Shown piece after piece: positions 11,174-53,135 of a stretch of 64,000 nucleotides of DNA. The stretch is from assembly GCF_044324875.1 (NCBI RefSeq), contig NZ_CP172185.1. One strand, written 5' to 3'. The position numbers were made by a program, and so were the translations under genes. The notes under the pieces were generated by a model. The model saw only the letters and a program-made list of their open reading frames with translations, had not been told where the DNA came from and did not search any database. The stretch is from Escherichia coli (GTDB taxonomy: Bacteria; Pseudomonadota; Gammaproteobacteria; Enterobacterales; Enterobacteriaceae). The stretch's first letter is position 1. Each line of letters opens with the position of its first letter.

Positions 11174-12541
11174 TTACAGACTTCTTGAAGGTTGCGCAGC
11201 TGTTACAACACGCGGTTGATCTTCCGCGGCATCTTCCAGTGCACTTAAATCACGGTCTCTCACTTCTGGCATTTTCAGCGCAGAGATTAAACCAATCACT
11301 GAATATGCCATGATCATAATGGCGATCGGATACCAGGATTCCGTCATGGTGCAGAAAATACCCGCCAGGATAGGACCAAAACCGGAAGCGATAAGACCAC
11401 CAATTTCTTTAGAAATCGCCATCCGGGTAAAGCGGTTTTTACAGCCGAACATTTCTGCCATGGTAATGTTTTCCAGAGCAAATAATCCCAGCACCGCACA
11501 GTTATGAATCACAATCAGTGCAACCATAATGGTGCTCGGGGCATAGCTTTTATCTACGATGATAGAAAGCATTGGCCACGCCAGCACAATCGCAGAGGTA
11601 TTCATAATAATATACGGGATCCGGCGACCTATTTTATCGGATAACCAACCAAGGAACGGAATGGTCATAAAGCCGAGAATCGAACTGATCATCAATGCAT
11701 CTGTTGGAATTGCTTTGTTAAACAATAACGTCTGCACTAAATAGCCTGCAAGGAAAGTCTGAATTAAACCGGAGTTACCAGCCTGACCAAAACGCAGCCC
11801 TGTTGCCAGCCAGAAGGATTTGCTCTGGAACATGCTACCAGCAGGTGCAGGTTTTGCTGTCGGTTGGTTGCTGTCGTTAACCTTCTCAAAGACCGGGCTT
11901 TCTTTCAGATTCATACGCAACCAGATAGCAAAGACCATCACGACAACGCTCGCCAGGAACGGTATACGCCATCCCCACGCAAGCAGTTCCTCTTTACTGA
12001 GAATGAAGAACATAAAGGCCCAGATTGCCGTTGCGCTCAAGGTTCCGCAGTTAGTCCCCATAGCAACAAATGAGGAGATAATTCCGCGCTTACCTTTTGG
12101 TGCATATTCCGCCAGCATCGTGCCGGCACCGGAAATTTCCGCGCCTGCCCCCAGCCCCTGAATAATACGCAGCGTCACCAGCAAAATTGGCGCAAACACA
12201 CCAATTTGTGCATAGGTCGGCAGCACACCAATTAAGGTAGTACAGATCCCCATCATAGTGATGGTAATAAAGAGCACTTTTTTACGCCCGATTCTGTCGC
12301 CCATTTTGCCGAAAATAAATGCTCCGACAATACGCGCCACATAACCTGCACCGTAGGTTCCCATTGCCAGAATTAACGCCATTGCCGTTGATGATTCAGG
12401 AAAAAATATTTCATGAAACACTAACGCTGCGCCGAGCGAATATAACTGGAAATCCATAAATTCAAGCGCAGTGCCCAGCCATCCCGATACTGCTGCTTTC
12501 ACCAAATCCTTAGTGCTTCTTTCGTGTTTTTCTATTGTCAT
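11174..12541 (-). CDS. ydfJ: YdfJ MFS transporter, full-length 455 aa
   Basis: Multi-TM MFS translation, uninterrupted. Confidence 0.85.
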   Translation of the reverse strand: MTIEKHERSTKDLVKAAVSGWLGTALEFMDFQLYSLGAALVFHEIFFPESSTAMALILAMGTYGAGYVARIVGAFIFGKMGDRIGRKKVLFITITMMGICTTLIGVLPTYAQIGVFAPILLVTLRIIQGLGAGAEISGAGTMLAEYAPKGKRGIISSFVAMGTNCGTLSATAIWAFMFFILSKEELLAWGWRIPFLASVVVMVFAIWLRMNLKESPVFEKVNDSNQPTAKPAPAGSMFQSKSFWLATGLRFGQAGNSGLIQTFLAGYLVQTLLFNKAIPTDALMISSILGFMTIPFLGWLSDKIGRRIPYIIMNTSAIVLAWPMLSIIVDKSYAPSTIMVALIVIHNCAVLGLFALENITMAEMFGCKNRFTRMAISKEIGGLIASGFGPILAGIFCTMTESWYPIAIMIMAYSVIGLISALKMPEVRDRDLSALEDAAEDQPRVVTAAQPSRSL

Positions 12542-16447: not shown

Positions 16448-16462
16448 GGTAATGACTCCAAC

Positions 16463-16966
16463 TTATTGATAGTGTTTTATGTTCAGATAATGCCCGATGA
16501 CTTTGTCATGCAGCTCCACCGATTTTGAGAACGACAGCGACTTCCGTCCCAGCCGTGCCAGGTGCTGCCTCAGATTCAGGTTATGCCGCTCAATTCGCTG
16601 CGTATATCGCTTGCTGATTACGTGCAGCTTTCCCTTCAGGCGGGATTCATACAGTGGCCAGCCATCCGTCATCCATATCACCACGTCAAAGGGTGACAGC
16701 AGGCTCATAAGACGCCCCAGCGTCGCCATAGTGCGTTCACCGAATACGTGCGCAACAACCGTCTTCCGGAGCCTGTCATACGCGTAAAACAGCCAGCGCT
16801 GGCGCGATTTAGCCCCGACATAGCCCCACTGTTCGTCCATTTCCGCGCAGACGATGACGTCACTGCCCGGCTGTATGCGCGAGGTTACCGACTGCGGCCT
16901 GAGTTTTTTAAGTGACGTAAAATCGTGTTGAGGCCAACGCCCATAATGCGGGCAGTTGCCCGGCAT
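16463..16966 (-). CDS. insB: IS1 InsB transposase component, 167 aa
   Basis: Translation [26 protein letters not shown]... recognised as IS1 InsB. Confidence 0.93.
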
Positions 16967-17160
16967 CCAACGCCATTCATGGCCATATCAATGATTTTCT
17001 GGTGCGTACCGGGTTGAGAAGCGGTGTAAGTGAACTGCAGTTGCCATGTTTTACGGCAGTGAGAGCAGAGATAGCGCTGATGTCCGGCGGTGCTTTTGCC
17101 GTTACGCACCACCCCGTCAGTAGCTGAACAGGAGGGACAGCTGATAGAAACAGAAGCCAC
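16885..17160 (-). CDS. insA: IS1 InsA, 91 aa
   Basis: Translation [30 protein letters not shown]...; overlaps insB in the -1 frame. Confidence 0.93.
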
Positions 17161-17225
17161 TGGAGCACCTCAAAAACACCATCATACACTAAATCAGTAA
17201 GTTGGCAGCATCACCCACAATAGCA

Positions 17226-31431: not shown

Positions 31432-31449
31432 AAAAATAAATATCCTCCG

Positions 31450-32160
31450 GCATAGCCGGAGGTTTTTCAAATGCGCCTATAAGGCTCTCTTACCAGCCGC
31501 GCCCTAACAGGCGCACACGATCTGACATTTGCATCCAACTTCGTTACTTACGGCCCGTAAACGGGCTGCCCGGATAGGGAATCGATAACTGCTCTCCCAT
31601 TTTATCCTCTTCAAGCTGGTGCTTTATGTAATCCTGTATCTTCGCCGTGTTCTTACCCACCGTATCGACGTAATACCCTCTGCACCAGAACTCCCTGTTC
31701 CTGTATTTGAATTTCAAATCACCAAACTGCTCGTAAAGCATCAGACTGCTTTTCCCTTTCAGATATCCCATAAAGCCTGATACGCTCATTTTGGGCGGGA
31801 TCTCCACAAGCATATGGATATGATCTGCACAGCATTCAGCTTCCAGAATCCGTACACTTTTCCACTCACACAGCTTTCTCAAAATACAGCCTATTGCTCT
31901 ACGCTTCTCTCTGTAGAACACCTGTCTTCGGTATTTTGGCGCAAATACTATGTGATATTTACAGTTCCATCGGGTGTGCGCTAAGCTCTTTTCGTTCCCC
32001 ATTGGGACCCCCTTTTGATTTCTTGTTTGACACTTGCAGTTGCCAGACCGCAAGGTGTTTTAACAAATCAAAAGGGGTTTTAATAACTGGCTCAAAGCTG
32101 AAAGCTTTCCGGAACCCCCAGCCTAGCTGGGGGTTTTCTGTGCACAATAAGTCCGGACTG
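31450..32160 (-). mobile_element. IS200-like element (IS200/IS605 family), about 0.7 kb; ends approximate
   Basis: Contains Y1 (HuH) transposase gene; upstream of its ATG is a stem-loop that includes the SD, and further upstream a perfect palindrome ggaacccccagcctagctgggggtt at ~32103-32128; no terminal inverted repeats expected for this family. Confidence 0.7.
31544..32002 (-). CDS. tnpA: IS200-family TnpA Y1 transposase, 152 aa
   Basis: Translation MGNEKSLAHTRWNCKYHIVFAPKYRRQVFY... with HuH motif (ADHIHMLVEIPP) and catalytic Tyr region. Confidence 0.9.
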   Translation of the reverse strand: MGNEKSLAHTRWNCKYHIVFAPKYRRQVFYREKRRAIGCILRKLCEWKSVRILEAECCADHIHMLVEIPPKMSVSGFMGYLKGKSSLMLYEQFGDLKFKYRNREFWCRGYYVDTVGKNTAKIQDYIKHQLEEDKMGEQLSIPYPGSPFTGRK

Positions 32161-32566
32161 CGGTAAATACCCATCCGGACTTATTGCCTGCTCAAACCAA
32201 CGTTAATAGCCATCCTAAAATAGACGAAGCGCCAGCCAATTCCCGCAGCGCATCTAGTGTCATCAGGATTATAAATACCCAAATAAACGGATTCATTTTG
32301 CTGTGTGTCATTTATTACTGATGCGCAGTTATTCTACCGCTTTGTAAGTAGTAAAATAGTTAACCCGATCAAGACTACTATTATTGGTAGCTAAATTTCC
32401 CTTAAGTCACAATACGTTATTATCAACGCTGTAATTTATTCAGCGTTTGTACATATCGTTACACGCTGAAACCAACCACTCACGGAAGTCTGCCATTCCC
32501 AGGGATATAGTTATTTCAACGGCCCCGCAGTGGGGTTAAATGAAAAAACAAATTGAGGGTATGACA

Positions 32567-32875
32567 ATGAAAAAAGTATTAGCTCTGGTTGTTGCCGCTG
32601 CTATGGGTCTGTCTTCTGCTGCCTTTGCTGCAGAGACTGCGACCACACCTGCTCCGACTGCGACGACCACCAAAGCAGCGCCGGCGAAAACCACACATCA
32701 TAAAAAACAGCATAAAGCAGCACCTGCCCAGAAAGCGCAGGCGGCTAAAAAGCATCATAAAAATGCCAAAGCTGAACAGAAAGCTCCTGAACAAAAAGCG
32801 CAGGCAGCGAAGAAACACGCCAAGAAACACAGCCATCAGCAACCGGCAAAACCTGCTGCACAACCCGCAGCGTAA
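32567..32875 (+). CDS. asr: Asr acid-shock periplasmic protein, 102 aa
   Basis: Signal peptide then low-complexity Ala/Lys/His/Gln-rich repeats. Confidence 0.9.
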
Positions 32876-32967
32876 GTTATCAATAGTAATGCTGGCGCGC
32901 CCCCTCGCGCCTGAAAATTACGGTGCTAAGCGGATAACGTTTAGCACCGCCTTTAGCGGAGGGTAGT

Positions 32968-33051
32968 ATGGTGGGCCGTTATCGCTTTGAGTTCATTCTT
33001 ATCATCCTTATTTTATGCGCACTGATTGCCGCCCGTTTTTATCTTTCCTGA
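32968..33051 (+). CDS. ydgU: YdgU 27-aa small membrane protein
   Basis: ATG at 32968 encodes MVGRYRFEFILIILILCALIAARFYLS with stop at 33049-33051; SD ggaggg upstream. Confidence 0.7.
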   Translation: MVGRYRFEFILIILILCALIAARFYLS

Positions 33052-33150
33052 TCGTAGTTATCTGATTTTACTCCCACTTTCATCCCGTCCCGTCTATAGT
33101 ATTTATGAGGGTTTGCTTTTAATAATCATAATTACCCACCAGAGTGTGAT

Positions 33151-33972
33151 ATGCGTACAACCATTGCTGTAGTGTTGGGTGCAATTAGTTTGACGTCTGC
33201 TTTTGTGTTTGCAGATAAACCAGACGTTGCCAAATCGGCAAACGATGAGGTCAGCACCCTGTTTTTTGGTCATGATGATCGTGTGCCAGTGAATGACACG
33301 ACCCAATCACCGTGGGATGCGGTTGGCCAACTGGAAACGGCCAGCGGCAATTTATGTACGGCGACGCTGATTGCACCCAATCTGGCATTAACGGCAGGAC
33401 ACTGTTTATTGACGCCGCCAAAGGGTAAAGCCGATAAAGCGGTGGCGCTGCGTTTTGTGTCAAATAAAGGTCTTTGGCGCTATGAGATCCACGACATAGA
33501 AGGCCGCGTTGACCCGACACTGGGAAAGCGGTTAAAAGCAGATGGGGATGGTTGGATTGTTCCTCCCGCAGCTGCGCCGTGGGACTTCGGTTTGATTGTG
33601 CTACGTAATCCCCCTTCTGGCATTACACCATTGCCGTTATTTGAGGGAGATAAAGCCGCGCTTACCGCCGCATTAAAAGCGGCAGGTCGTAAAGTGACTC
33701 AGGCGGGATACCCTGAAGATCATCTCGATACGTTGTACAGTCATCAAAACTGTGAAGTGACTGGCTGGGCGCAAACGTCGGTGATGTCGCATCAGTGCGA
33801 TACCTTGCCGGGTGACAGCGGTTCGCCTCTGATGTTGCATACCGATGACGGCTGGCAATTAATTGGGGTGCAAAGTTCGGCTCCTGCCGCGAAAGATCGC
33901 TGGCGCGCCGATAACCGGGCCATTTCTGTTACCGGTTTTCGCGACAGGCTGGATCAACTGTCGCAAAAATAA
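33151..33972 (+). CDS. ydgD: YdgD secreted trypsin-like serine protease, 273 aa
   Basis: Signal peptide; TAGHC (His) and GDSGSP (Ser) catalytic motifs. Confidence 0.9.
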
Positions 33973-34010
33973 TGTTCAAACGCTGCCCGACAGCGCGGGC
34001 AGCGTGTTCA

Positions 34011-34340
34011 TCAGGCAAGTTTCACCATGATCATTCCAGCCAACAGCAAGACCAGGCCAATCCAGCCTTTACGATTTAACCGTTGACCAAACAAGATCCA
34101 ACCTGCGGCTAACGTGGCGGCAATACCAAACCCGCCCCACAATGCATAAGCGACAGACAAGTCGATCCCTTTAACGGCCTGAGAAAGCGCACTAAAGGCA
34201 GCCAGCACCGCCGCCAGAGAGAGCACGCCAAATATTTTGCGACGAAAGCCGTCAGAAAATTTCAAAAAAACGTTAGCAACGATTTCCAGCACGATTGCCA
34301 ATGCCAGCCAGGCGGCGTGAACCCATTCAAACTGCGCCAT
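34011..34340 (-). CDS. mdtI: MdtI SMR-family spermidine exporter subunit, 109 aa
   Basis: 4-TM SMR translation; overlaps mdtJ. Confidence 0.9.
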
Positions 34341-34692
34341 GGTTCACCTCCAGTTCAGGTTTACGCGCTTTACGGGTACCTGATTTGATCAACACAATCC
34401 CGGCCACCAGGGTGGTTAACCCGGCAATTTTCATCAGCGATAAACTTTCGTCGAATAACAAAACGCTAAACAAGGTAATAAATAAAATACCGATACCTTC
34501 CCACAGCGCATAAGCCACGCCTAAGGCGATCTTTTTAACGGCGAAAGAGAGAAATATATACGACAGAGAAATCATCACCAGCATTAAAATAAAGCCGCCA
34601 TTTCCCTCACTGACGCTCGCCCATTTCATGGACAGCGTACCGGTAATTTCTGTAGCAATAGCCAGACCTAATAAAATCCAATAAATATACAT
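34327..34692 (-). CDS. mdtJ: MdtJ SMR-family spermidine exporter subunit, 121 aa
   Basis: 4-TM SMR translation upstream of mdtI. Confidence 0.9.
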
Positions 34693-35103
34693 TGTCCTTC
34701 TCCTGCAAGAGAATTATTTTAATTTTCGCTTAATTCAGCGAAACCAAAGTAAAGTGGTCAAGCTCCGCGCATGGCGCAAGCTTAGGCAGAAGTAAGGACT
34801 AAAGCGCGTTGCGCCAGTGTTGCTCACCTACGAGCAAGATAGTGGATGAGGTACGAAGATGGGTAAATGTAGAAAATAACGCCCTGAACAAATTGTCCAT
34901 AATATTACAATTATCCGCAGTGTTGCTTCTCGTCATCGCGGATGATAATTGTCCTCGGTAGTTGAACACGCCTGATTTGTATCATAGCTTAAGAATTAAC
35001 TCAAAATATTTTCACTTCTTTACCTGAGCGGTTTGATTTTCGTTATGATGACGGAGCGAAAAAGACATTATTATTAGCAAAGGAAGAAAAAACGGGGACA
35101 AGC

Positions 35104-35240
35104 ATGGCAAAGCCGATCATCACGCTCAATGGCCTAAAAATCGTCATTATGTTGGGAATGCTGGTCATTATTCTCTGCGGTATCCGTTTTGCCGCCGAGA
35201 TCATCGTGCCGTTTATTCTCGCATTATTTATTGCTGTTAT
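35104..35240 (+). pseudogene. tqsA: tqsA (AI-2 exporter) 5' fragment, first ~45 codons, truncated by element insertion
   Basis: ATG at 35104 encodes [45 protein letters not shown], then the frame runs into AT-rich foreign sequence and stops within ~25 bp; the rest of the gene resumes at 50814. Confidence 0.88.
35232..35240. repeat. Left attachment-site core (attL), 9-bp TGCTGTTAT
   Basis: Same 9-mer recurs at 50813-50821, where the tqsA reading frame resumes. Confidence 0.7.
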
Positions 35241-35316
35241 ATATAACTTATTTCACTTAACACATTGATTTAATTAAATAATTTACACTACAAAAAGTGC
35301 CAAAAATCGCAAATTA

Positions 35317-35369
35317 ACTACACCATTAACTACACCGTTCGGCGCACTGTATGAAACAACGTGGAACAA
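35317..35369 (+). repeat. Left-arm repeat cluster: 2x ACTACACC (12-bp spacing) then GAAACAACGTGGAACAA
   Basis: ACTACACC at 35317-35324 and 35329-35336; 17-mer at 35353-35369 recurs inverted at 49334-49350. Confidence 0.6.
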
Positions 35370-35559
35370 ATAGGCACAAGAAATATAAAGGCGGGTAATT
35401 TTTAGGGGGCGTTAATGTCGATATGGGGATCCACATATCGAGATTGATACCTGGCTTTTTTTCCGGTTAACCTTTAATCAGGCTGGTGGGCTTTACCTGT
35501 TCTGTAGGAGTGGTCATTATGACCATTCAGCCAATGACCTTAATCAGAATTTTTCGCTA

Positions 35560-35590
35560 AAAAATGACGTTGGCCACGTCATCCGGAAAG
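35560..35590 (-). terminator. Probable terminator at the end of the packaging operon
   Basis: Palindrome atgacgttggccacgtcat followed by a T6 run on the minus strand. Confidence 0.45.
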
Positions 35591-35652
35591 CACAAAATCA
35601 CGTCGATTTTTAATGGATGGTTAAACCGTCTTTATCTCGATGTCCGTACGTA

Positions 35653-35943
35653 TTACGTACGCAGTCGTTCCGGCTTCTTCCAGTGGTACGTATTTTTCGC
35701 GCTCTCCCTCCGTTGTTGAGAACGGCGACGGTATGCCAGCAACTCAAGGACTCTTGTTCGTATGTTGCGCATATCCACGCCGTTAAGCTCAATACCATCA
35801 CGGCGCATCACCTCCGCAACAACACGCACATAATTTTCGGCGGTCACGCTGTCCGGCTGCGTGGCCTGTTCGTCATGCTGCTGGCTGATTCCGGTAACGC
35901 GGCGGATTAATCCCAGTAGTTCGGCTTCGCTCATTCTCGTCAT
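35653..35943 (-). CDS. Hypothetical protein (96 aa), start overlaps terL stop (ATGA)
   Basis: ORF start overlaps the terL stop; no recognisable motif. Confidence 0.4.
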   Translation of the reverse strand: MTRMSEAELLGLIRRVTGISQQHDEQATQPDSVTAENYVRVVAEVMRRDGIELNGVDMRNIRTRVLELLAYRRRSQQRRESAKNTYHWKKPERLRT

Positions 35944-37601
35944 ACCCCATCAAACGCCGCAAGCCGCTCTTTGTGGCTGTCGCTCATATCGAATGCAAAT
36001 TCCTCATGCTCTGCCTGGAATGTGCCAAACGCCATCAGCGCCGCAACGCTCGGGTCTATCTTGTTGGATGATTTTTTCTTGTTCGGCTTGATATTGGCGT
36101 TCGCGTCACTCTGCATCACAACATTACTCATTGACCAGGCCAGCACCGGATCACCACGATGCACAATCACCTTCCGGTTAACAAAAACTTCGAACGATTT
36201 CGCCGCCGGACTGAAACGAAGGTATGTTTGCGGGAACGGCTCCACCTCAAATCCCGCCCCCTGTAGCTGTGTTCTCAGGTGAGTGGCGTTCCATGTATCG
36301 AAGCCCACCAGCCTGATACTGAAATTCTCTGCATCCGCCATGATGTCATCACGGATACGGTCATAATCAATGCAGTCACCCGGTGTTGTGCGTATCCAGC
36401 CAGCCTTTACCCACTGGCGATAGATGGCGCGGTTTTTATTGGCGGGGTTCTGTAGCTGAAATTCCGGCAGATAGTGACGGGAAACCAGCATAATTTTTTT
36501 ACCGACCGGGAAGGCATAGCACACGCTGGAAATATCGCTGGTTGATGATAAGTCCAGCCCCGCGTAGCACTCCTGCCCGTATAAATCCGCCTCCGCGAAC
36601 GTTCCGGCGCACTCCGCCCATGCACCGTTACCCATCCACGGCGTAGCCCCCTGACACCAGATATTGAATCGCTTGGTGAGCATTTCCACCCACTGCGACG
36701 GAATACCCCGCGCTTTCTGGATGGTTGAGGCCAGTTTTTCACGATCGACGGAAACATCGATATTGGGATTCGCCTTTATCCACATCGCCGGATCGTCAAC
36801 CTCGCTTTCATCATCCAGCTCGTAAATCAGCACGAACATGGATTCGTTCACCTCTTCACCATCCAGTATCTGGCAGCAATAGTCATAGTGTTGTTTACAG
36901 GCTGAAACAACGTTGCTCCCCGATGTGGTGATGGCAAATAACAGCCCCTCCGGACGCGCCCCCATTCCCAGCTCAAGCGCGGAATAAACCCCGTTGTCAG
37001 GGTGCAGGTGATATTCATCCACAATGGCAAGACTCGGGTTTGTACCTTCAATGGTTGCCGCTTTTGCTGCCAGTGGCTTTAACAGGCTGTTGGTTTTCGC
37101 GTGTATCACCTTGTGTGCCTGAATATTTACCCGCTTTCGTAACGGTCGGGATAAAAGGCACATCTGACGCGCATCATCAAACACGATCCGCGCCTGATCA
37201 CGACTCACGGCGGCGGTGTAAATATCCTGCTGCCCGTTTTCCATAACCAGAAACCAGTTAGCCAGGATAGCGGCGACCGTGGATTTGGCATTTTTTCGCG
37301 GTACTTCAATGAATGCGCTGGTGTATTTGCGCCGTCCGGTGGCCTTAACCTTAAAGCCCAGGATGCACGCAAAGGCGAACTGCTGCCACGGCTCCAGCTC
37401 AATGGGGCTACCGCGCATTGCGCCTTTTACGTGCGGACACACCCTGGAAAAGGCAATAAACCGCTCCACGACCTCCGGATCGAACGTGTAAAGGGGGTTT
37501 TCAAGGTCAGAAAAATACCGTTTAACAGCCTGTTTCAGTCGTTTACAGGCCGTAATTTTGCCGTTTTTTACGCCTTCTGCGTACTCATGCCAGGCGGTCA
37601 A
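35940..37601 (-). CDS. terL: Terminase large subunit, 553 aa
   Basis: ATPase P-loop-like VPRKNAKST and Walker B-like LAIVDEYH, C-terminal nuclease-like region; overlaps terS 3' end. Confidence 0.85.
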   Translation of the reverse strand: MTAWHEYAEGVKNGKITACKRLKQAVKRYFSDLENPLYTFDPEVVERFIAFSRVCPHVKGAMRGSPIELEPWQQFAFACILGFKVKATGRRKYTSAFIEVPRKNAKSTVAAILANWFLVMENGQQDIYTAAVSRDQARIVFDDARQMCLLSRPLRKRVNIQAHKVIHAKTNSLLKPLAAKAATIEGTNPSLAIVDEYHLHPDNGVYSALELGMGARPEGLLFAITTSGSNVVSACKQHYDYCCQILDGEEVNESMFVLIYELDDESEVDDPAMWIKANPNIDVSVDREKLASTIQKARGIPSQWVEMLTKRFNIWCQGATPWMGNGAWAECAGTFAEADLYGQECYAGLDLSSTSDISSVCYAFPVGKKIMLVSRHYLPEFQLQNPANKNRAIYRQWVKAGWIRTTPGDCIDYDRIRDDIMADAENFSIRLVGFDTWNATHLRTQLQGAGFEVEPFPQTYLRFSPAAKSFEVFVNRKVIVHRGDPVLAWSMSNVVMQSDANANIKPNKKKSSNKIDPSVAALMAFGTFQAEHEEFAFDMSDSHKERLAAFDGV

Positions 37602-37941
37602 GCTCGTCCTCTTCCTCTGTTTCCGGTGGATTTCTGCGGCGGCTTACCGGGTCAAAACCCAGCAAAGAAGCCATTTTGATCATTATTCTTTCCGCGTCAG
37701 CCTTTGCGCTCAGGGCGGGGTTTCTGCTCTCGCTGCCCTGACTGTTAACAATGCTGAACCCGCGCGTGGCAAGGTCTTCGACGGCTTTGCGGTATATGGA
37801 GTAGTTAACGCAATACAGCTCCAGATTGCTCCAGTCGGCGGGAGTAAGGTCTTCCCGTCCGGAAAGCTGGCGCGATTTTTCCTTCCACTGCCTGACCGCG
37901 ATTTCATCCAGGTAAGCGGGGGCTTTTGGTGGTCTTGCCAT
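37585..37941 (-). CDS. terS: Terminase small subunit (P27-type), ~118 aa
   Basis: Translation MARPPKAPAYLDEIAVRQWKEKSRQL...; overlaps terL start by 17 nt. Confidence 0.7.
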   Translation of the reverse strand: MARPPKAPAYLDEIAVRQWKEKSRQLSGREDLTPADWSNLELYCVNYSIYRKAVEDLATRGFSIVNSQGSESRNPALSAKADAERIMIKMASLLGFDPVSRRRNPPETEEEDELDRLA

Positions 37942-38004
37942 GTTCTTTTTTCGCCCAATTATTTTCAAAAAAATTCCCGTGCACAAAAATTTGAGCAGGC
38001 GGTC

Positions 38005-38060
38005 GGTTCTGGGCGGGGTCGGGTTCGTCCTGAAAACTCCCCCCCACCCCGTCCGGCTGC
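38005..38060. other. Candidate cos/packaging-initiation region (GC-rich, lambda-cosN-like)
   Basis: gggcggggtcgggttcgtcc and ctcccccccaccccgtccggc between the HNH module and terS; resembles the lambda cohesive end GGGCGGCGACCT. Confidence 0.35.
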
Positions 38061-38064
38061 CTCA

Positions 38065-38247
38065 TCAGCGATTGCGGAAACATTCCATAACCTCGCGGTC
38101 ACGGTCGTTTAATCGCGTCGCTGTGATGCGTTCTGCGCGTCCTGATGCTTTATCTTTATGCCCTGTTTCCTGTGCCTTCCATGCGTCACGCTGCCTTATC
38201 AGTCCACGAATAAGGCTGTTTTGTTCCCGTTCATTCATCAGCGTCAT
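38065..38247 (-). CDS. Possible small hypothetical protein (60 aa) between HNH and terS
   Basis: Internal ATG of the 38065..38481 ORF, starting just before the HNH stop. Confidence 0.3.
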   Translation of the reverse strand: MTLMNEREQNSLIRGLIRQRDAWKAQETGHKDKASGRAERITATRLNDRDREVMECFRNR

Positions 38248-38671
38248 ACATCCAGTTATTGCGGTTGGCTGCCCGTTCTTCCTCCTCACGGAATCCGCCA
38301 ACTGCACGCTTGTTTTTTGTGGCCGGATCAAGCCATTTCGTTTTCTGGTTATGACACGCCTGACACAATGGCTGATGATTCCACTCAGGCCAGAAGAGAA
38401 CATCATTACCGCCATCGATGGGGATAATGTGATCCACCACCACGGCGGGCGTGTATATTCCTTTTTCCAGGCAATGCGCACATAACGGGTTTTTACTCAG
38501 GTACATAGCGCGGTATTTCTCCCACTGCCTCGTATACCCTCGCTCCCTGCTGCTGCCTCTCCGGCTGTCCTGCTGCTGGCGTGCGCTGCGTCTGTGCTCC
38601 TCACACTTGCCGGACTTCACGCGCCTGTTGCAGCCTGGTTGTGTGCATCGTCTCAATGGTTGCCACGGCAT
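38231..38671 (-). CDS. HNH endonuclease (terminase-associated), 146 aa
   Basis: Zn-finger/HNH motifs CTQPGCN...CEEH, CAHC, VDHIIPIDGGND, NHQPLCQACHNQK. Confidence 0.85.
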   Translation of the reverse strand: MPWQPLRRCTQPGCNRRVKSGKCEEHRRSARQQQDSRRGSSRERGYTRQWEKYRAMYLSKNPLCAHCLEKGIYTPAVVVDHIIPIDGGNDVLFWPEWNHQPLCQACHNQKTKWLDPATKNKRAVGGFREEEERAANRNNWMYDADE

Positions 38672-38967
38672 CAGTACACCCCCACATCACGATAAACCGA
38701 CCAGAGCGCGGAAATCGTCAGGGGAATTTCTTTTGTATCGGTATCGCCAAGCGTTGTCCGGTACTCGTACAGTTGCGAGATGTACATCAGGCAACCAATT
38801 TTTATTGCAGGGGTAAATTCCAGGCCGTCATCAAAACGCCTGCCAATATGCTTCTGGCATACCTCCAGCGCCGCGCTTATGTATGCCTGAATCAGTGTGT
38901 CTTCTGTGTTACCATCTATGCGGCAGTGAAGTTTGGCCTCTTCCAGGGTTATTTTTTCTGCTGTCAT
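38671..38967 (-). CDS. gp6-like head-tail connector protein, 98 aa
   Basis: N-terminal LEEAKLHCRID...DTLIQAYISAALE signature. Confidence 0.65.
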   Translation of the reverse strand: MTAEKITLEEAKLHCRIDGNTEDTLIQAYISAALEVCQKHIGRRFDDGLEFTPAIKIGCLMYISQLYEYRTTLGDTDTKEIPLTISALWSVYRDVGVY

Positions 38968-39302
38968 TTTTCTGTACCCACCTTTGCCAGAATTTCCAGC
39001 CGGGTTCTTTTCGCATCAGGTAAGGGGATCCCGATGATATTAAGCGTGCTCCCGGCAAAAGCGCCGGTAAGCACTTTCAGGCGACTGGCGGCGGATATGT
39101 CGCCACGATAGCGAACCCATACCCGAATCGTTGCAGGTGCGGTTTCTGCGCCTGCGGTCAGTAATTCCCGTCCGCTGATCCCCTTGACCTCTGCCCAGAT
39201 GGTTTCCCCTTCCGTCCATATCTGCTGGATCGCACCTGACGGCAGGCGCTGTGTGGTAAATGTCATAATCGTCACCCGGTCCCGCATCTTTCCGGCTATC
39301 AT
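38964..39302 (-). CDS. Head-tail joining / head closure protein, 112 aa
   Basis: Size, position next to portal, and the typical RDRVTI...WAEVKGISGRE pattern. Confidence 0.6.
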   Translation of the reverse strand: MIAGKMRDRVTIMTFTTQRLPSGAIQQIWTEGETIWAEVKGISGRELLTAGAETAPATIRVWVRYRGDISAASRLKVLTGAFAGSTLNIIGIPLPDAKRTRLEILAKVGTEK

Positions 39303-40516
39303 TCGTCACCGCCCTTACTGTTCTTGCTGATTGTCACTTCCTGCTTCCATGCCTGGCTGAACTCGTCGCCACCTTCACGCGGCGGCATTCCCTCACGCTC
39401 ACGGGCTTCGTTCGGATTGATGATCCCGTTCTTAATCCCTTTCTCATACGTGGCGTAACGTTCGGTAGGGGTGGCGCGTAATAAATCGGCTGAATCAAAC
39501 TCAACCAGATAACGGGTACCAGGTACGGGAGAAGCCACCAGCAAAGCAGCCTTGATTTGCTGTTCGAAGTTCGCCAGCCACGGGCGCATTGTCATGGTCA
39601 GAAACGCGCGGCTTGCCTCACTGAAATTGCTGTAGGTGCTGTTGCTGTATTCCTGCAAAAAAATCGGCGAGACGTTGAACATTCGGGCGATGTCTTCAAT
39701 GGTAAAGCGACGGGAGGCCAGCCATTCAGCATCCTGATTACTCATGCCCAGCTGCTGATAGCTCATACCCCCTTCAAGGATGGGCGTTTTTCCGGCGTTT
39801 CTGGCCCCTTTGTAGCGTTCCAGTGCGGCTAATGCCTGTTTGCCCTTCACGCCGTCCAGCCATTCGCCTGACGTGATAACCCCTGCCGCCATCATGCCAT
39901 CACGCATCACGCTCGCGCCGTGGCGTTGTTGGGCCAGCCCAAGCCCCAGCGATTCGCGGCAGATGGTTACAGGTGAGCGCCCCATAAAGCCGTCATCCGT
40001 GGAGTAACGAAGGTGGAGAACCTCCCACGGTAAATAGTTGCGGGTGTTTCCGGTGTAGGCGTCAGTGATGCAGTAGCGCCAGTTATGCTCACCTGTCTGC
40101 TCCACGTTCACCGACTGCGGCGGGTAAGGATGTAAAGCCACCGGAAAACCATCACGCCCCCACTGAATAACCGCATAAGCATTACCGTTTAACAGGCAGT
40201 GGCGGATCATCATTCGCTTAAACTGGTAGGGGGTTTGCCATGCGTTCGGGCGCTCGTTGAGGATGTGATCGACCGGATGAGAATCAAGCCACTCGCGGGC
40301 CTCCTTCCCCTTCTCATTGCGTACCAGGTACAGGTAACACGGCATGGTAGCCACCGCCTCAGAGATGACCGTCACGGCGTTCATGACGGCGGGCAGTGAT
40401 TCCGCTGTCCCCGATGATACGTACTCACCCGCCCCCGTGTTCGATGTGCCCGCCAGCGCCATAAATTCATCAAGCGTCATGCTGCGCTGCTCTTTTTTTC
40501 TTCTGAAAAGCCACAT
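39299..40516 (-). CDS. Portal protein (HK97-type), 405 aa
   Basis: Length and position between protease and connector genes; HK97-portal-like translation. Confidence 0.8.
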   Translation of the reverse strand: MWLFRRKKEQRSMTLDEFMALAGTSNTGAGEYVSSGTAESLPAVMNAVTVISEAVATMPCYLYLVRNEKGKEAREWLDSHPVDHILNERPNAWQTPYQFKRMMIRHCLLNGNAYAVIQWGRDGFPVALHPYPPQSVNVEQTGEHNWRYCITDAYTGNTRNYLPWEVLHLRYSTDDGFMGRSPVTICRESLGLGLAQQRHGASVMRDGMMAAGVITSGEWLDGVKGKQALAALERYKGARNAGKTPILEGGMSYQQLGMSNQDAEWLASRRFTIEDIARMFNVSPIFLQEYSNSTYSNFSEASRAFLTMTMRPWLANFEQQIKAALLVASPVPGTRYLVEFDSADLLRATPTERYATYEKGIKNGIINPNEAREREGMPPREGGDEFSQAWKQEVTISKNSKGGDE

Positions 40517-40517
40517 A

Positions 40518-41090
40518 TCACACCCCCGCTAAATCCACCCACCAGCGGCGATTATCCGCACGCGGCATTTTTTCGGGGTGCTGCTCATACAGGGAACGGC
40601 GGGCCAGCTCCACGCCAGAATCGGGGTAAGCCGGTACCGATGTAACGGTAATTTCGTACAGTTCCGCCACCAGCACGGTACGAACGCATGGATCTGTTGT
40701 GGTATCCCATACATCCTTACGGGAGCGAAAGCCAAAGCTCATGCCGGATATATCACCGCGTTTAACCAGTTCGATAACGTCGCGCCCTGTACTGGTATCC
40801 GGTGGGGTCAGTTCAAAGCGTAACCCTGTTTCGTCCTCTTCCAGTTTCAGCGTGCCGGAACGGGTGCGCCCCAGTAACATGCTGTGGTCATGCTCATACA
40901 GGCCGCGAACGTCATTACCCGCCGCAAGCCATTCAGTAAACGCCCCCCGCTGGAATTTTTCGTAAAACTCACCCCATAACAGTTCTGAAAGCTTATCCCA
41001 GCGAACAACGTAGCCCGTCAGCGTACCGGCTCCGCTCGTGGTGATTTCCGATGACCGGATTTCCATACTCTTCATAATTTTTTCACCCAT
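40518..41090 (-). CDS. Prohead protease (HK97 family), 190 aa
   Basis: Translation resembles HK97-type prohead protease; lies between capsid and portal. Confidence 0.75.
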   Translation of the reverse strand: MGEKIMKSMEIRSSEITTSGAGTLTGYVVRWDKLSELLWGEFYEKFQRGAFTEWLAAGNDVRGLYEHDHSMLLGRTRSGTLKLEEDETGLRFELTPPDTSTGRDVIELVKRGDISGMSFGFRSRKDVWDTTTDPCVRTVLVAELYEITVTSVPAYPDSGVELARRSLYEQHPEKMPRADNRRWWVDLAGV

Positions 41091-41129
41091 AAAACACTAA
41101 AGGGGCTTTTAAGCCCCTTCTGTATGCTG

Positions 41130-49033: not shown

Positions 49034-49316
49034 TATTGCCCCCTTTCGTTTCTTAAAGAGTTATTTCGTGTTCTATTGCGTTGGTATGTGTCTGATTGTG
49101 TCAGGGTGATTCAGAGTTGGCAAATGTTGGTGGCGGGTATTTTACAGAAACGGGGTAATTTTAATAAAAAACATTTTAATTCAGTATTATGCAAAGGCAT
49201 AAAATCTCGTTTTATGCCTTTTTTCTCACTATTTAAAGCGTTATTCGCTAATGTATAAAAAACCAGTTGAGCATTAAAAATCAGCAACTTATAAGTCTGT
49301 ATACTTTTTCGCCTCT

Positions 49317-49359
49317 TGTTCGTGGTTGTTCCACGTTGTTTCACATTGTTCGCCGTTGT
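49317..49359 (-). repeat. Phased GAACAA-type repeats between int and alpA, inverted relative to the other copies
   Basis: Minus strand reads CAACGGCGAACAATGTGAAACAACGTGGAACAACCACGAACAA; contains both 17-mers found at 35353-35369 and 42512-42528. Confidence 0.6.
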
Positions 49360-49407
49360 ATCTGTGTGCTTATCCAGTATGCGCATACTGAAAAAACACG
49401 AAAAAAA

Positions 49408-50637
49408 TTATTTTCTTCTGGCTACTGGTAGCGTGGTTACGTTTTCATGTGCTCCCGCCAGTATCTCCAACCGCTCCACCCACATATCCAGCGCATTGCG
49501 TTTCGCATCCAGATAACGGGAATGATTATAAACTCGCTGCATTCCTGGCATCTGGTGGCCTGTAAGCTGCTCCACGACATGCGGATCAACGCCTAAATCG
49601 TTCAGCATGGTTGTAAAGGTGCGCCGGATGTCATGCAGTGACCAGTGAGGGTGTTTAAGCCTCCTGTGCGCTAATCTTCCATACTGCGATACGCTGGCCT
49701 CCTGTTTCACTTCCCCCAGCAATAAGCCCGTGTGCCTGTTCTGCTCCACCAGCTGCGTGACGAACGGCAGTATCGCTTCCGGTATGGGCCGGAATATGGC
49801 TACCTTCGTTTTGCTGTGCTCCTTCGGAACGGTCCATAGCATTTCGGTAAAATCCCACTCCCCGATCTCCGATAGCCTCAGTTCTACTGTCCTGGCTCCG
49901 AAGACAATCAGGAGGCGGATTAGTGCGACGTAGTAAGGGGAAAATATTTTTTTATCCAGCGCCTGCAATAACTCGCCCAGTTCTTTGGTGCTTAAGACAC
50001 GTTCGCTTATATCCGGTTTTTTCCCAACGTCCGCCACGTTCAGATCGTCCAGAACGTTGCTGATTGCATAGCGCCGCCTACGGCAAAACTTAAGCGCCTG
50101 TTTGCACGCCTGTAGCACGAATCCGGCAGTAACAGGCGTTCGCTTTGCCACCTGGTCAAAACAGGCCAGCCAGTGCCGTAGCTCGCATTTATCCAGCGGC
50201 ATAGCACCAATGTGCTGTATTACGTGATTATTAACTCGCCTTTTCAGGGCGATATAATCCACGCGGTTTTCCTTTACGTAAGACTCAAGCCAGTAGGTGA
50301 GCGCATCGCCAACCGTTACCGGCTTTAACGCTTCCTGTACGGCGTAATTCATCTCATGGCGTGGATTTTTCCCCTCCGCCAGCCATGCGCGACACTGGGC
50401 GGCTTTTTCCCTGGCTGCTTTCAGGCTCAGATCAGGATAATTTCCCAGCTTAATACGTTCCGGTCGTGTCTCTCTTCCCGTTCCTGCCCTGTAAGTGAAA
50501 TACCAGGTTAATATCCCTGATGTTAAATATTTCACGCTCAGATTTCCGCCATCGCTATAAAACGTGTTTTTCTCCGCTGGCTTACCATGAAGTTTCCTTA
50601 GCAAGGTATCGCTCAGTTTGTTCATTGCTCTGCTCAC
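49408..50637 (-). CDS. int: Tyrosine integrase (P4-like family), ~405-409 aa
   Basis: C-terminal catalytic region HDIRRTF ... RVYNHSRY; adjacent to the att junction. Confidence 0.88.
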   Translation of the reverse strand: MSRAMNKLSDTLLRKLHGKPAEKNTFYSDGGNLSVKYLTSGILTWYFTYRAGTGRETRPERIKLGNYPDLSLKAAREKAAQCRAWLAEGKNPRHEMNYAVQEALKPVTVGDALTYWLESYVKENRVDYIALKRRVNNHVIQHIGAMPLDKCELRHWLACFDQVAKRTPVTAGFVLQACKQALKFCRRRRYAISNVLDDLNVADVGKKPDISERVLSTKELGELLQALDKKIFSPYYVALIRLLIVFGARTVELRLSEIGEWDFTEMLWTVPKEHSKTKVAIFRPIPEAILPFVTQLVEQNRHTGLLLGEVKQEASVSQYGRLAHRRLKHPHWSLHDIRRTFTTMLNDLGVDPHVVEQLTGHQMPGMQRVYNHSRYLDAKRNALDMWVERLEILAGAHENVTTLPVARRK

Positions 50638-50664
50638 GCTTTACCCCTTGTTTACGAAAAAGTG

Positions 50665-50728
50665 ACTACACCAGTGACTACACCGATCGTTGCACAAAGG
50701 GCTACAACGTGAAACAAGCTGGAACAAG
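50665..50728 (+). repeat. Right-arm repeat cluster: 2x ACTACACC (12-bp spacing) then GTGAAACAAGCTGGAACAAG
   Basis: ACTACACC at 50665-50672 and 50677-50684; GAAACAA/GGAACAA repeats at 50709-50728; same layout as the left arm. Confidence 0.6.
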
Positions 50729-50812
50729 AAAAATCACAAATTTGTTTATAATCAAAAACATAATGAACAAACTGAAACATTATGAAACGGCAAAAAACAC
50801 TAATTGATAAAA

Positions 50813-50821
50813 TGCTGTTAT
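50813..50821. repeat. Right attachment-site core (attR), 9-bp TGCTGTTAT
   Basis: Direct repeat of 35232-35240; tqsA frame resumes here. Confidence 0.7.
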
Positions 50822-51719
50822 TCTTAACCCGCTGGTGCAACACATGGTCCGCTGGCGTGTGCCGCGTGTACTGGCAGTGTCGATTTTGATGACCATCATC
50901 GTGATGGCGATGGTGTTGCTATTAGCTTATCTGGGTTCCGCGCTCAACGAGTTGACGCGGACGTTACCGCAATATCGCAACTCTATTATGACGCCGCTGC
51001 AAGCGATTGAACCGTTGTTGCAACGCGTAGGGATTGATGTCTCAGTTGACCAACTGGCGCATTACATTGATCCGAACGCGGCGATGACGTTGCTCACCAA
51101 CTTATTGACGCAGTTATCTAATGCCATGTCATCAATATTTTTATTGCTGCTGACGGTGCTGTTTATGCTGCTCGAAGTGCCACAATTGCCCGGAAAATTT
51201 CAGCAAATGATGGCGCGTCCGGTTGAAGGGATGGCGGCGATTCAGCGTGCGATTGACAGTGTTTCTCATTATCTGGTGCTGAAAACAGCCATCAGCATCA
51301 TCACCGGCCTGGTCGCCTGGGCGATGCTCGCCGCACTCGATGTTCGCTTCGCTTTTGTCTGGGGATTGCTGGCCTTTGCGCTTAATTACATCCCGAATAT
51401 TGGTTCAGTTCTCGCGGCAATCCCCCCTATCGCTCAGGTATTGGTGTTTAATGGCTTCTACGAAGCGTTGCTGGTGCTGGCGGGATATCTGCTGATTAAT
51501 CTGGTCTTCGGCAATATTCTGGAGCCACGCATCATGGGGCGTGGGCTGGGGCTTTCCACGTTGGTGGTATTTCTGTCGTTGATTTTTTGGGGATGGTTGT
51601 TAGGACCGGTGGGTATGCTGCTTTCCGTGCCGTTGACAATTATTGTCAAAATTGCGCTTGAACAAACAGCGGGAGGTCAAAGCATCGCCGTTCTGTTAAG
51701 CGATCTCAATAAAGAGTGA
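50814..51719 (+). pseudogene. tqsA: tqsA 3' fragment (codons ~44 to end); no in-frame ATG upstream of the junction
   Basis: Frame continues ...[22 protein letters not shown]... to stop at 51719; in-frame stop TAA at 50808-50810 inside the element; only internal GTG/ATG starts available. Confidence 0.85.
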
Positions 51720-51742
51720 CGGCCTCCGCAGAGGCCGTCAGG
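51716..51742. terminator. Hairpin between convergent tqsA and pntB
   Basis: gacggcctc-cgca-gaggccgtc. Confidence 0.5.
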
Positions 51743-51743
51743 G

Positions 51744-53135
<1,392 letters not shown>

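Follow-up and report, generated by a model that had tools for sequence, protein, structure and literature searches.

An island interrupting tqsA in Escherichia coli resembles the tail-less, capsid-encoding cf-PICI EcCIEDL933

Insertion site and contents of the island

Aligning E. coli K-12 with the window (the whole 64,000-nucleotide stretch of E. coli DNA analysed here) by BLASTN defined the inserted DNA as exactly 35241..50812, or 15,572 bp, within tqsA; these are the ends that a preliminary description, made from the sequence, had given for an insertion of ~15.6 kb. The K-12 alignment ends at 35240 and restarts at 50813 with a 9-bp overlap, TGCTGTTAT, which is found at both ends as the att core (Table 1). 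This core is short, and both copies are intact. The reading frame of the 5' fragment of tqsA enters the island and reaches a stop at 35268. In a genome with the same insertion, the counterpart of this fragment carries a pseudogene annotation, and the 3' part is labelled 'missing N-terminus'. The published literature already lists tqsA as an integration target. The remainder of the window matches K-12 collinearly from marR to fumA, so the island does not run on into a larger prophage; on both sides ordinary chromosome reaches the att cores, in line with the boundaries first proposed. No helper prophage was found in the 64 kb.

Table 1 Features of the island and its borders (window coordinates; identities are to the EcCIEDL933 homologue).
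Feature	Position	Strand	Basis	Identity
tqsA (AI-2 exporter) 5' fragment, cut by insertion	35104..35240	+	98.4% identity to K-12 up to 35240	
attL core TGCTGTTAT	35232..35240	.	9-bp overlap of two K-12 alignments	
Island, 15,572 bp	35241..50812	.	K-12 alignment; relative GCA_016108705.1	
AACAA-N5-AACAA motif, ~115 bp inside attL	35355..35369	+	position kept in related islands with related int/alpA	
93-aa ORF after terL	35653..35934	-	phrog_1561	80%
TerL, 553 aa	35940..37601	-	phrog_9, E 3.5e-180	93%, equal length
TerS (P27 family), 118 aa	37585..37941	-	phrog_83	88%
Candidate cos region, G+C-rich, conserved, 123 bp	37942..38064	-	between HNH/60-aa ORF and terS	
60-aa ORF in packaging module	38065..38247	-	phrog_3173	93%
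HNH endonuclease, packaging cofactor	38231..38671	-	phrog_144	88%
Head-tail adaptor Ad1 (Phage_connect_1), 98 aa	38671..38967	-	phrog_40; divergent allele	68%
Head closure Hc1 (Phage_HCP), 112 aa	38964..39302	-	phrog_25; divergent allele	54%
Portal, 405 aa	39299..40516	-	phrog_12, E 1.7e-118	95%
HK97-family prohead protease, 190 aa	40518..41090	-	phrog_80	97%
HK97-fold major capsid protein, 385 aa	41130..42287	-	phrog_10	98%
Two phased AACAA-N5-AACAA motifs	42504..42528	+	between divergent capsid and accessory gene starts	
157-aa accessory gene, strand opposite to neighbours	42603..43076	+		
Terminator-like hairpin, bidirectional	43080..43105	.	between convergent genes	
82-aa ORF	43112..43360	-	phrog_1957	
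PerC-family regulator, 93 aa	43406..43687	-	phrog_994, phrog_10396	
SSB (single-stranded DNA-binding protein)	43698..44108	-	phrog_44	98%
Two small ORFs, 101 and 83 aa	44118..44671	-	phrog_27268, phrog_1231	
Iteron array, GTGGGGAR x9, one inverted	44671..44856	-	directly 3' of repA	
RepA-family helicase (AAA_25), 468 aa	44873..46279	-	phrog_2850, E 1.7e-185; PF13481	46%, first 122 aa only
DUF4222 protein	46276..46563	-	family match	
Three small ORFs, 77, 73 and 79 aa	46569..47257	-	function-less PHROG families	
icd2 (second Icd-like gene), 57 aa	47247..47420	-	NCBIfam NF033153, 51 bits (cut-off 25)	
C4-type antisense RNA	47472..47559	-	Rfam RF01695, 72.3 bits (gathering score 45)	
a1/b1-type upstream C4 target sequences	47621..47676	-	Rfam RF03163, 44 bits (just below gathering score 46.7)	
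icd1 (first Icd-like gene), 65 aa	47707..47904	-	NF033153, 65 bits; phrog_29966, phrog_1743	
YlcI/YnfO-family small protein	48089..48268	+	NF041551, 63 bits; phrog_949	
63-aa ORF	48326..48517	+	100% identity in classical PICI of strain PKF11	
AlpA-family regulator/excisionase, 62 aa	48845..49033	-	phrog_2790	94%
Three phased exact AACAA-N5-AACAA motifs	49316..49350	-	between int 3' end and alpA	
Tyrosine integrase (Arm-DNA-bind_3 + Phage_integrase)	49408..50625	-	phrog_1; Pfam	91%
AACAA-N5-AACAA motif	50713..50727	+	between int start and attR	
attR core TGCTGTTAT	50813..50821	.	9-bp overlap of two K-12 alignments	
tqsA 3' part, without ~first 46 codons	50813..51719	+	K-12 alignment	

All 27 ORFs of the island are open. 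Coding sequence makes up 83% of it, and unassigned gaps reach at most 412 bp. We defined a cf-PICI by the 11 SatelliteFinder core components together with the lack of tail and holin genes. The integrase, AlpA, Rep, major capsid protein, prohead protease, portal, head-tail adaptor, head closure protein, HNH, TerS and TerL that make up this core were all detected (11 of 11), each with a strong PHROG match, and PHROGs agreed with the preliminary description on its integrase, AlpA, SSB and whole head and packaging set (capsid, protease, portal, two connectors, HNH, TerS and TerL). None of the 27 ORFs matched a tail or lysis family, as had been claimed, and none was a membrane-spanning candidate (the 19-residue hydropathy mean never exceeded 1.73). 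As far as sequence allows a test, the island has all the features that define a cf-PICI. The protein previously called RHH appears from its family matches to belong with the YlcI/YnfO-family small proteins (NF041551, phrog_949), and the statement that every ORF is accounted for was too strong because ~10 small ORFs have no known function; family searches with the 63-aa ORF gave no significant match. Genes of the same size as alpA and the PerC-family gene carry PF05930 and PF06069, respectively, in L013 and L016.

Within the head module, the capsid protein aligns over residues 1-385 with the major head protein of PDB 9GYI (~98% identity, E 3e-252), a chain assigned to EcCIEDL933 from sequence and paper, and it has a STGVPAD cleavage-site motif. 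The Hc1 protein is 63-69% identical to those of Klebsiella temperate phages and Escherichia phage Fraca, and the adaptor and closure allele occurs at 97.5% identity or more in 16 of 5,426 complete genomes. The stretch upstream of terS is conserved in an alignment with four related islands including EcCIEDL933. From HK97-type gene order, we take cos to lie at 37942..38064; cos ends have been reported for cf-PICIs. Judged by gene order, the neighbouring 60-aa ORF may be homologous to 'gene 1792', a gene in which mutation caused a severe drop in transfer.

The replication protein, described earlier as a RecA-like/AAA protein with adjacent iterons, is indeed a RepA/AAA_25 helicase, and 9 of the 10 GTGGGGAR matches in the window (3.07 expected window-wide) fall within 44671-44856, directly 3' of repA, suggesting that this array is the probable origin. 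The AACAA-N5-AACAA motif shows a similar confinement, with all seven window matches inside the island against 0.36 expected. The copy at 35355..35369 is a candidate integrase arm-type or AlpA site, and AlpA targets within the island are thus far predicted ones. The position between the capsid and accessory genes is occupied in all examined cf-PICIs with this int/alpA type, yet the classical PICI L014 has no motifs there despite having the same int/alpA. The integrase, for which there is an alternative GTG start at 50637, is 97% identical to that of another tqsA-site island and 90-92% identical to integrases of roxA/phoQ-site islands.

The preliminary description mentioned neither the C4 antisense RNA and its targets nor the two icd-like genes. 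The C4 loop, UCCUGUAGUG, can pair without mismatch with CACUACAGGA at 47439-47430, which lies ~10 nt before the icd2 ATG (47420), and the targets upstream of the RNA have UUGACAG and ACUACAG complementarities. A C4-family RNA in an operon leader, followed by an icd-like gene and with target repeats on both sides of the RNA, is likewise found in P1/P7 immI (c4-icd-ant) and the P4 CI RNA. In contrast to P1/P7 immI, which precedes an antirepressor, the island cassette precedes satellite replication genes and has an additional icd-like gene ahead of it; its function is a predicted one.

Relatives and identity of the island

Between 2022 and 2025 the cf-PICI family was described and analysed by experiment, with EcCIEDL933 of E. 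coli O157:H7 EDL933 as its prototype (Alqurainy et al. 2022, bioRxiv 10.1101/2022.09.08.507074; He et al. 2025, bioRxiv 10.1101/2025.02.11.637232). The family is reported to occur in 13% of Enterobacteriaceae genomes. The two islands are of similar size (15.57 kb vs 15.4-15.5 kb), with identical gene order, nearly equal protein lengths and, for most packaging proteins, high identity (Table 1). The region upstream of terS is kept, and AACAA-N5-AACAA motifs stand at the same four places. They differ in integration site, which is roxA/phoQ for EcCIEDL933, in the closure and adaptor proteins, in the small ORFs downstream of alpA and in Rep, which in the prototype is a DUF927 protein resembling RepA in the first 122 residues only. 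EcCIEDL933 also lacks the cassette made up of the C4 RNA and the second icd gene, as well as the 157-aa accessory gene.

Among 5,426 complete E. coli genomes, the head module is present in 402 and the attR junction in tqsA, raised in the preliminary description as a possible recurrent site, in 246. Islands with this gene set occur at tqsA and at roxA/phoQ with differing integrase alleles. At tqsA, the draft genome GCA_016108705.1 is 99.84% identical over 18,128 gapless bp, flanks included, and the public E. coli genome GCA_044091775.1 likewise carries a cf-PICI. LH50-c (NZ_CP100500.1), at roxA/phoQ, matches the island from o83 through the adaptor gene with proteins 99.7-100% identical, the accessory gene and the adaptor/closure pair among them, but differs in its site and integrase allele (90%) and has neither the C4/icd2 cassette nor the YlcI-like gene. 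In the literature searched, we found no experimental work on these three islands. Classical Gram-negative PICIs (EcCICFT073 type; PKF11, GCA_018047765.1) have the integrase, AlpA, icd, C4, DUF4222, Rep, SSB and PerC half in common with the island, and the one in GCA_018047765.1, which also occupies tqsA, has a C4 RNA and this RepA protein. Unlike the island, they lack a portal, protease, adaptor, closure protein, HNH and TerL, and have only capsid-remodelling genes (a Phage_cap_E-type capsid and a head decoration protein), with TerS in addition in PKF11.

We conclude that the island is very probably an intact cf-PICI and a close relative of EcCIEDL933, placed at the 9-bp core by its own tyrosine integrase with inactivation of tqsA. 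The tail-less, capsid-encoding satellite first proposed is borne out by the complete core set and by the gene order, size and protein identities in common with EcCIEDL933. Because of this close relationship the island represents an established family well, rather than a novel type of element. We counted against this reading the window without a helper prophage, the short att core, the divergent adaptor/closure pair, the Rep type other than the prototype's, and the predicted status of the cos site, origin, C4 function and AlpA targets.

A cf-PICI by descent could also have become a fixed remnant, inherited vertically at tqsA and neither inducible nor compatible with available tails. The window without a helper phage fits such a history, repA is frameshifted in one related tqsA island, and the 99.84-99.86% identity of the two closest tqsA-site copies could mean clonal descent. 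However, no ORF of the island itself is interrupted, its packaging proteins, including the capsid and terminase, have about the lengths of those of the functional prototype, and both att cores are intact. Furthermore, LH50-c has a near-identical back half, many of its proteins 100% identical, at another site and with another integrase allele, which argues for recent movement or exchange, and we regard the fixed remnant as improbable.

It is more improbable still that the island is what deletion of the tail and lysis modules left of an HK97-like prophage. Its head and packaging genes are phage-derived, of HK97-type PHROG families, and outside the cf-PICIs their nearest structural relatives are phage- and GTA-type capsids. 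Against this, hundreds of genomes contain the same 15.4-15.6 kb unit, its ends unchanged, at two att sites, the half for regulation and replication belongs to the PICI type (AlpA, icd, DUF4222, PerC) common to classical PICIs, chromosome reaches the att cores on both sides, and published gene-repertoire comparisons set cf-PICIs apart from phages. The C4/CI-type RNA with icd-like genes, the P4-type integrase with its arm-binding domain and the AlpA/Vis-like regulator might instead suggest a P4-like satellite or a P4/PICI hybrid with an immunity RNA as its main switch. This we consider hardly credible: the island has a capsid, portal and terminase of its own, which P4 does not, no ORF matches PHROG families annotated as Psu, Delta, Sid or alpha-type primase, and the C4 cassette is optional among cf-PICIs, missing from EcCIEDL933 and three other relatives.

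Proposed life cycle

For a cf-PICI of this kind we propose seven steps, of which 1 and 5 are drawn from the island sequence and the others from experimental work with EcCIEDL933 and islands related to it. In quiescence (step 1) the leftward early operon (icd1, C4 RNA, icd2, small ORFs, DUF4222 and repA) would be held down, with the C4-type antisense RNA contributing by pairing with the sequence immediately before the icd2 start codon, in the manner of P1 immI. A helper phage would then turn alpA on (step 2), AlpA being needed for induction, as experiments on cf-PICIs found; excision would be followed by replication by the RepA helicase from the iteron origin 3' of repA, with the island's SSB (step 3). 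The packaging operon would provide the HK97-fold capsid protein, protease and portal for small T=4 heads of ~15.5 kb (step 4). cf-PICIs indeed form small capsids; the capsid is T=4 and 47.5 nm, with a capacity of 15.5 kb. TerS, TerL and HNH would cut and package island DNA at cos, putatively in the 123-bp region upstream of terS (step 5), and Ad1 and Hc1 would close the portal and make the tail-docking surface (step 6). Each packaging gene is required for cf-PICI transfer, tail-less capsids are released and the phage supplies only tails, the adaptor/connector pair determining which ones fit. In the last step the phage would likewise provide lysis and tails, with the adaptor/closure pair setting which tails can be used. 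Because the adaptor and closure proteins are only 68% and 54% identical to those of the prototype, the compatible tails of the island may differ from those of HK106.

Boundaries and gene content of the tqsA island

By BLASTN, the K-12 region aligned to 32146-35240 of the window and resumed at 50813-52772, the two alignments sharing 9 bases, and direct repeats were present at both ends of the intervening DNA. This overlap and the repeats place the island limits at 35241..50812 (15,572 bp of inserted DNA), so the coordinates of the preliminary description were exact. In an ORF map of 33-53 kb, mdtJI and the 5' stub of tqsA precede the leftward gene block, and the rest of tqsA and pntB follow it. 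The AI-2 exporter gene tqsA is cut after approximately codon 46, with no in-frame replacement from the island, and its inactivation may matter for quorum-sensing phenotypes. The remainder of the window keeps the K-12 gene order from marR to fumA at ~98% identity, with exceptions at Qin and at IS1 and IS200-type elements. The cryptic K-12 prophage Qin is absent at 12446-12464, where ydfJ is directly joined to ynfP/rspB; relative to K-12, an IS1 copy (insA/insB frames) lies between speG and ynfC at 16448-17212, and an IS200-type element with a Y1 transposase TnpA on the minus strand lies between ynfM and asr at 31440-32145. Collinearity of both flanks with K-12 ruled out a larger prophage continuing past 35241..50812, a possibility that the preliminary description had raised, and no helper prophage was found within the 64-kb window. 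As expected of a capsid-forming phage-inducible chromosomal island (cf-PICI), the island is a discrete integrated unit of ~15 kb with its own att sites, outside any prophage.

We translated the 27 island ORFs and scanned each against PHROGs. None matched a tail or lysis family, and the highest 19-residue hydropathy mean among them was 1.73. The island has a coding density of 83% and no unassigned stretch longer than 412 bp; as annotated, it has no space for a tail module. The earlier claim that tail, holin and endolysin genes are missing thus held, as did that of iterons adjacent to the rep gene: the 64 kb window contains ten GTGGGGAR matches, nine of them in one array directly 3' of repA. The SatelliteFinder cfPICI model comprises an integrase, AlpA regulator, primase/replicase, capsid, prohead protease, portal, head-tail adaptor, head-tail connector, HNH, TerS and TerL. 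Judged by PHROG matches per component against the published model definition, 11/11 core components are present, with the RepA/AAA_25 helicase provisionally counted as the Rep component, for which the model has five profiles. The same RepA was found in other islands with the same packaging module. Tail and holin/lysis components, which are forbidden in cf-PICIs, were absent from the 27 ORFs.

Features of the tqsA island in order along the window
Feature	Position	Strand	Remarks
tqsA fragments	35104-35268; 50813-51719		
Direct repeats (att cores) TGCTGTTAT	35232-35240; 50813-50821		9 bp
AACAA-N5-AACAA site near attL	35355-35369		~115 bp inside attL
Packaging genes			in order: major head protein, head maturation protease, portal, Hc1, Ad1, HNH, 60-aa ORF, TerS, TerL, 93-aa ORF
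Adaptor/closure pair (Ad1, Hc1)	38671-39302	-	
Terminator-like hairpin	41099-41120	-	between capsid and protease genes
AACAA-N5-AACAA site, two phased copies	42504-42528		between divergent capsid and accessory gene starts, upstream of capsid operon
157-aa gene	42603-43076	+	rightward, between replication and head modules
Two small ORFs, SSB, PerC-family protein, 82-aa ORF			left of iteron array
Iteron array	44671-44856		directly 3' of repA
RepA/AAA_25 helicase, 468 aa	44873-46279	-	phrog_2850; PF13481
Three small ORFs (function unassigned), DUF4222 protein			left of icd2
C4/icd2 cassette	47247-47706	-	460 bp; between icd1 and replication operon
Icd-like gene, C4 antisense RNA with upstream targets, second Icd-like gene			next leftward of the small rightward genes
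Two small rightward genes, one YlcI/YnfO family			after alpA from right end
AlpA-type regulator/excisionase			second from right; phrog_2790
AACAA-N5-AACAA site, three phased copies	49316-49350		between int 3' end and alpA, upstream of alpA
Integrase			right end, first in order; phrog_1
AACAA-N5-AACAA site near attR	50713-50727		between int start and attR

Two ORFs of 361 and 194 aa that a mechanical ORF list placed over 47247-48792 were rejected as artefacts that run over the two icd-like genes, the C4 RNA and, on the opposite strand, the two small genes. PADLOC matches to ZorE (E 0.008) and a methyltransferase (E 0.025) were weak and were taken as chance. The terminator-like hairpin at 41099-41120 might raise capsid expression relative to that of the genes downstream.

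Comparison with EcCIEDL933 and alternative origins

cf-PICIs move DNA across strains, and even genera, in their own DNA-filled capsids joined to phage tails, and SatelliteFinder, whose cfPICI model forbids tails and holins, finds them in 13% of Enterobacteriaceae genomes. The prototype, EcCIEDL933, is a 15.4 kb element that carries int, alpA, rep and all genes for heads and packaging but none for tails; its induction by helpers HK106 and HK446 needs alpA, its small capsids are island-encoded with only phage tails required from the helper, and transfer is lost on mutation of any packaging gene except one hypothetical gene, whose mutation causes a severe reduction (Alqurainy et al., bioRxiv 10.1101/2022.09.08.507074). 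Its capsid, of which the structure is solved, has T=4 geometry and a diameter of 47.5 nm, and tail-less cf-PICI capsids are released and can join the tails of other phages, with compatibility set by the adaptor/connector pair (He et al., bioRxiv 10.1101/2025.02.11.637232).

The tqsA island has the same gene order as EcCIEDL933, which is located between roxA and phoQ in the EDL933 chromosome, and the same protein lengths except for the portal (405 aa, compared to ~403). Identities are 97.9% for the capsid, 97.4% for the protease, 95.0% for the portal, 93.1% for TerL, 88.4% for HNH, 88.0% for TerS and 93.3% for the 60-aa ORF, with SSB at 97.8%, AlpA at 93.5% and the integrase at 91.1%. Across the packaging module the range is 54-98%, or 88-98% without the adaptor/closure pair; the modules of family members have been reported to be 50-90% similar (Alqurainy et al.). 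The capsid protein matched the 385-residue chain of PDB 9GYI (E 3e-252) with eight substitutions (~98% identity), and its STGVPAD sequence fits the SxGxxAD maturation motif reported from EcCIEDL933. The lengths, order and identities, together with the 9GYI match, indicate that the head and packaging genes are intact and not the degraded pseudogenes that would have spoken against a satellite. By its gene content the island is therefore a so far unstudied member of the known, experimentally characterized cf-PICI family, in agreement with the preliminary description of a tail-less, capsid-encoding, cf-PICI-like satellite in tqsA.

For the island itself the parts list alone is established; we infer its induction, capsid size, cos site, origin, C4 action and tail choice from sequence. 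It most likely works as EcCIEDL933 does. A helper would trigger alpA expression and then excision, RepA would replicate the element from the iterons, and T=4 heads would be assembled and filled by TerS, TerL and HNH from a cos site in the conserved region upstream of terS, predicted to fall inside 37942-38064. The adaptor and closure proteins would then seal the heads, and helper-mediated lysis would be followed by joining to phage tails.

Other origins fit the data less well. A classical PICI uses the helper capsid and may not carry portal, connector or adaptor genes, but here genes for portal, Ad1, Hc1 and TerL accompany a full capsid gene. A functional HK97-like temperate prophage has a tail module, a lysis cassette and a genome of ~40 kb, compared to only 15.6 kb here; descent from such a prophage by deletion is very unlikely, since the island recurs as a unit with the same ends at two sites, and its left half is of PICI type. 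Even less credible is a P4-like satellite, which would depend on a helper capsid: the island has its own capsid and terminase genes, and PHROG annotation gave no match to Psu, Delta, Sid or alpha-type (primase-helicase) functions. The island could instead be a cf-PICI copy that has become fixed and can no longer be mobilized. We consider this improbable, though less so than prophage deletion or a P4-like satellite, as the ORFs and att cores are intact and modules have been exchanged with the island of strain LH50-c (NZ_CP100500.1).

Exchangeable modules of the cf-PICI

As a cf-PICI the island adds nothing conceptually new. It is, however, a clean example of natural variation, in which three modules (the Ad1/Hc1 pair, the Rep type and an optional C4 cassette) are swapped on an almost constant head module, and such variants are useful for testing the determinants of tail compatibility and the silencing of Gram-negative PICIs. 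Interest remains in four features: the divergent pair for tail docking, the RNA immunity cassette as an optional module, the conserved AACAA sites and an accessory gene with no assigned function.

The adaptor/closure pair is far more divergent from EcCIEDL933 (Hc1 54% and Ad1 68% identical) than the flanking portal and HNH genes (95% and 88%). Hc1 is closer to proteins of Klebsiella temperate phages and Escherichia phage Fraca, at 63-69% identity, than to its EcCIEDL933 counterpart. Ad1 has no sequence relative among solved structures. The pair is a minority allele, found at >=97.5% identity in 16/5,426 complete E. coli genomes. Swapped adaptor/connector pairs on near-identical packaging modules have been reported and tied to tail choice (He et al.), and thus the tails compatible with the island may differ from those of HK106.

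The Rep proteins also differ: EcCIEDL933 has a DUF927 protein where the tqsA island has a RepA-type helicase. The two are related only over the first 122 residues, at 46% identity (compared with 4139-4519 of locus L007, EcCIEDL933), which suggests a shared N-terminal Rep module. Both Rep types are preceded by a DUF4222 gene. The same RepA also occurs in other cf-PICIs and in classical PICIs.

The third swap is a cassette containing a C4-family RNA (72.3 bits, compared to an Rfam gathering score of 45), a1/b1-type upstream and a2/b2-type downstream target repeats and a second icd-like gene. The C4 loop UCCUGUAGUG is an exact 10-nt complement of CACUACAGGA at 47439-47430, ~10 nt upstream of the icd2 start codon (47420), and we read the AGGAG inside this stretch as a putative ribosome-binding site. 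A single-stranded CUGUCAA of the C4 RNA is complementary to UUGACAG on both sides of the RNA, and 7-nt complements to the C4 RNA are found at the b1, b2 and a1 positions. This arrangement is that of the P1 immI c4-icd system. The cassette is not shared by the whole family, as Rfam detected no C4 RNA in EcCIEDL933 and in three other relatives; it is present in two near-identical tqsA cf-PICIs and two classical PICIs, and at >=80% coverage in 134/5,426 genomes. Matches of the Rfam C4 and isrK models to several Gram-negative PICIs have already been noted in print. The C4 cassette is thus known in PICIs at the bioinformatic level; experimental accounts of cf-PICIs describe no RNA switch of this kind.

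The Ad1/Hc1 pair and the C4 cassette allow a joint reading that we put forward as a tentative and rather doubtful one, in which the minority Ad1/Hc1 allele docks capsids on other phage tails and the C4/icd cassette is a helper-independent RNA immunity switch of the P1/P4 style. If true, the retargeting of tails would change which species the island reaches, and the switch would exert helper-independent control over the replication operon.

The sequence AACAA-N5-AACAA has seven matches in the window, all within the island, where 0.36 would be expected. The motif is 10-bp-phased and occupies four intergenic places: inside attL, between the int start and attR, between the int 3' end and alpA, and between the capsid and accessory genes. 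EcCIEDL933 and other cf-PICIs with closely related int/alpA carry it at the same four places, whereas in a classical PICI sharing this int/alpA it is limited to the first three, and in an island with the same RepA but different int/alpA it is absent. The motif thus goes with the integrase/AlpA module. Those sites that lie near att resemble arm-type sites, and those near promoters suggest AlpA or integrase as a regulator; candidate binders are the integrase arm domain and AlpA. None of the papers covered was found to describe these sites.

Distribution and the accessory gene

The literature describes tqsA as a gene disrupted by integrative elements, and six attB sites have been reported for cf-PICIs. 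The int-side tqsA junction is present in 246/5,426 complete E. coli genomes (~4.5%), which makes tqsA a recurrent site, a point that the preliminary description had proposed to check; by this measure, E. coli commonly lacks an intact tqsA. The head module, from capsid to portal, was present at >=80% coverage in 402/5,426. The exact island was not found among complete RefSeq genomes, the best match being LH50-c at the roxA/phoQ site (96.5% over 90%). A near-identical copy is, however, already in public assemblies: in the draft GCA_016108705.1, island and flanks give an ungapped match of 18,128 bp at 99.84%. Integrase alleles go with the site, with 97% identity to another tqsA island and 90-92% to roxA/phoQ islands. 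In an exact-sequence look-up, the integrase from its ATG start gave no match and RepA gave one.

The 157-aa accessory protein had no match in the families searched, and its confident structural model gave no informative fold match. It has ~20 homologue clusters, and every named source among them belongs to the Enterobacterales. An Edwardsiella cf-PICI has a homologue in the equivalent slot, and another homologue adjoins a DUF2971 gene in a Raoultella element with int, AlpA and primase. The variable regions flanking the packaging operon are expected to hold immune systems (He et al.), and the protein could, at a guess, be a new defence or counter-defence factor. A PICI-like element of Raoultella planticola (GCA_053346595.1, comparison locus L009) contains int, AlpA, an AntA-domain protein, a DUF927 primase and tail-fibre-assembly-like genes. 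It appears to be set between a lambda-type portal gene and prophage capsid genes, and resembles published helper-embedded PICIs.
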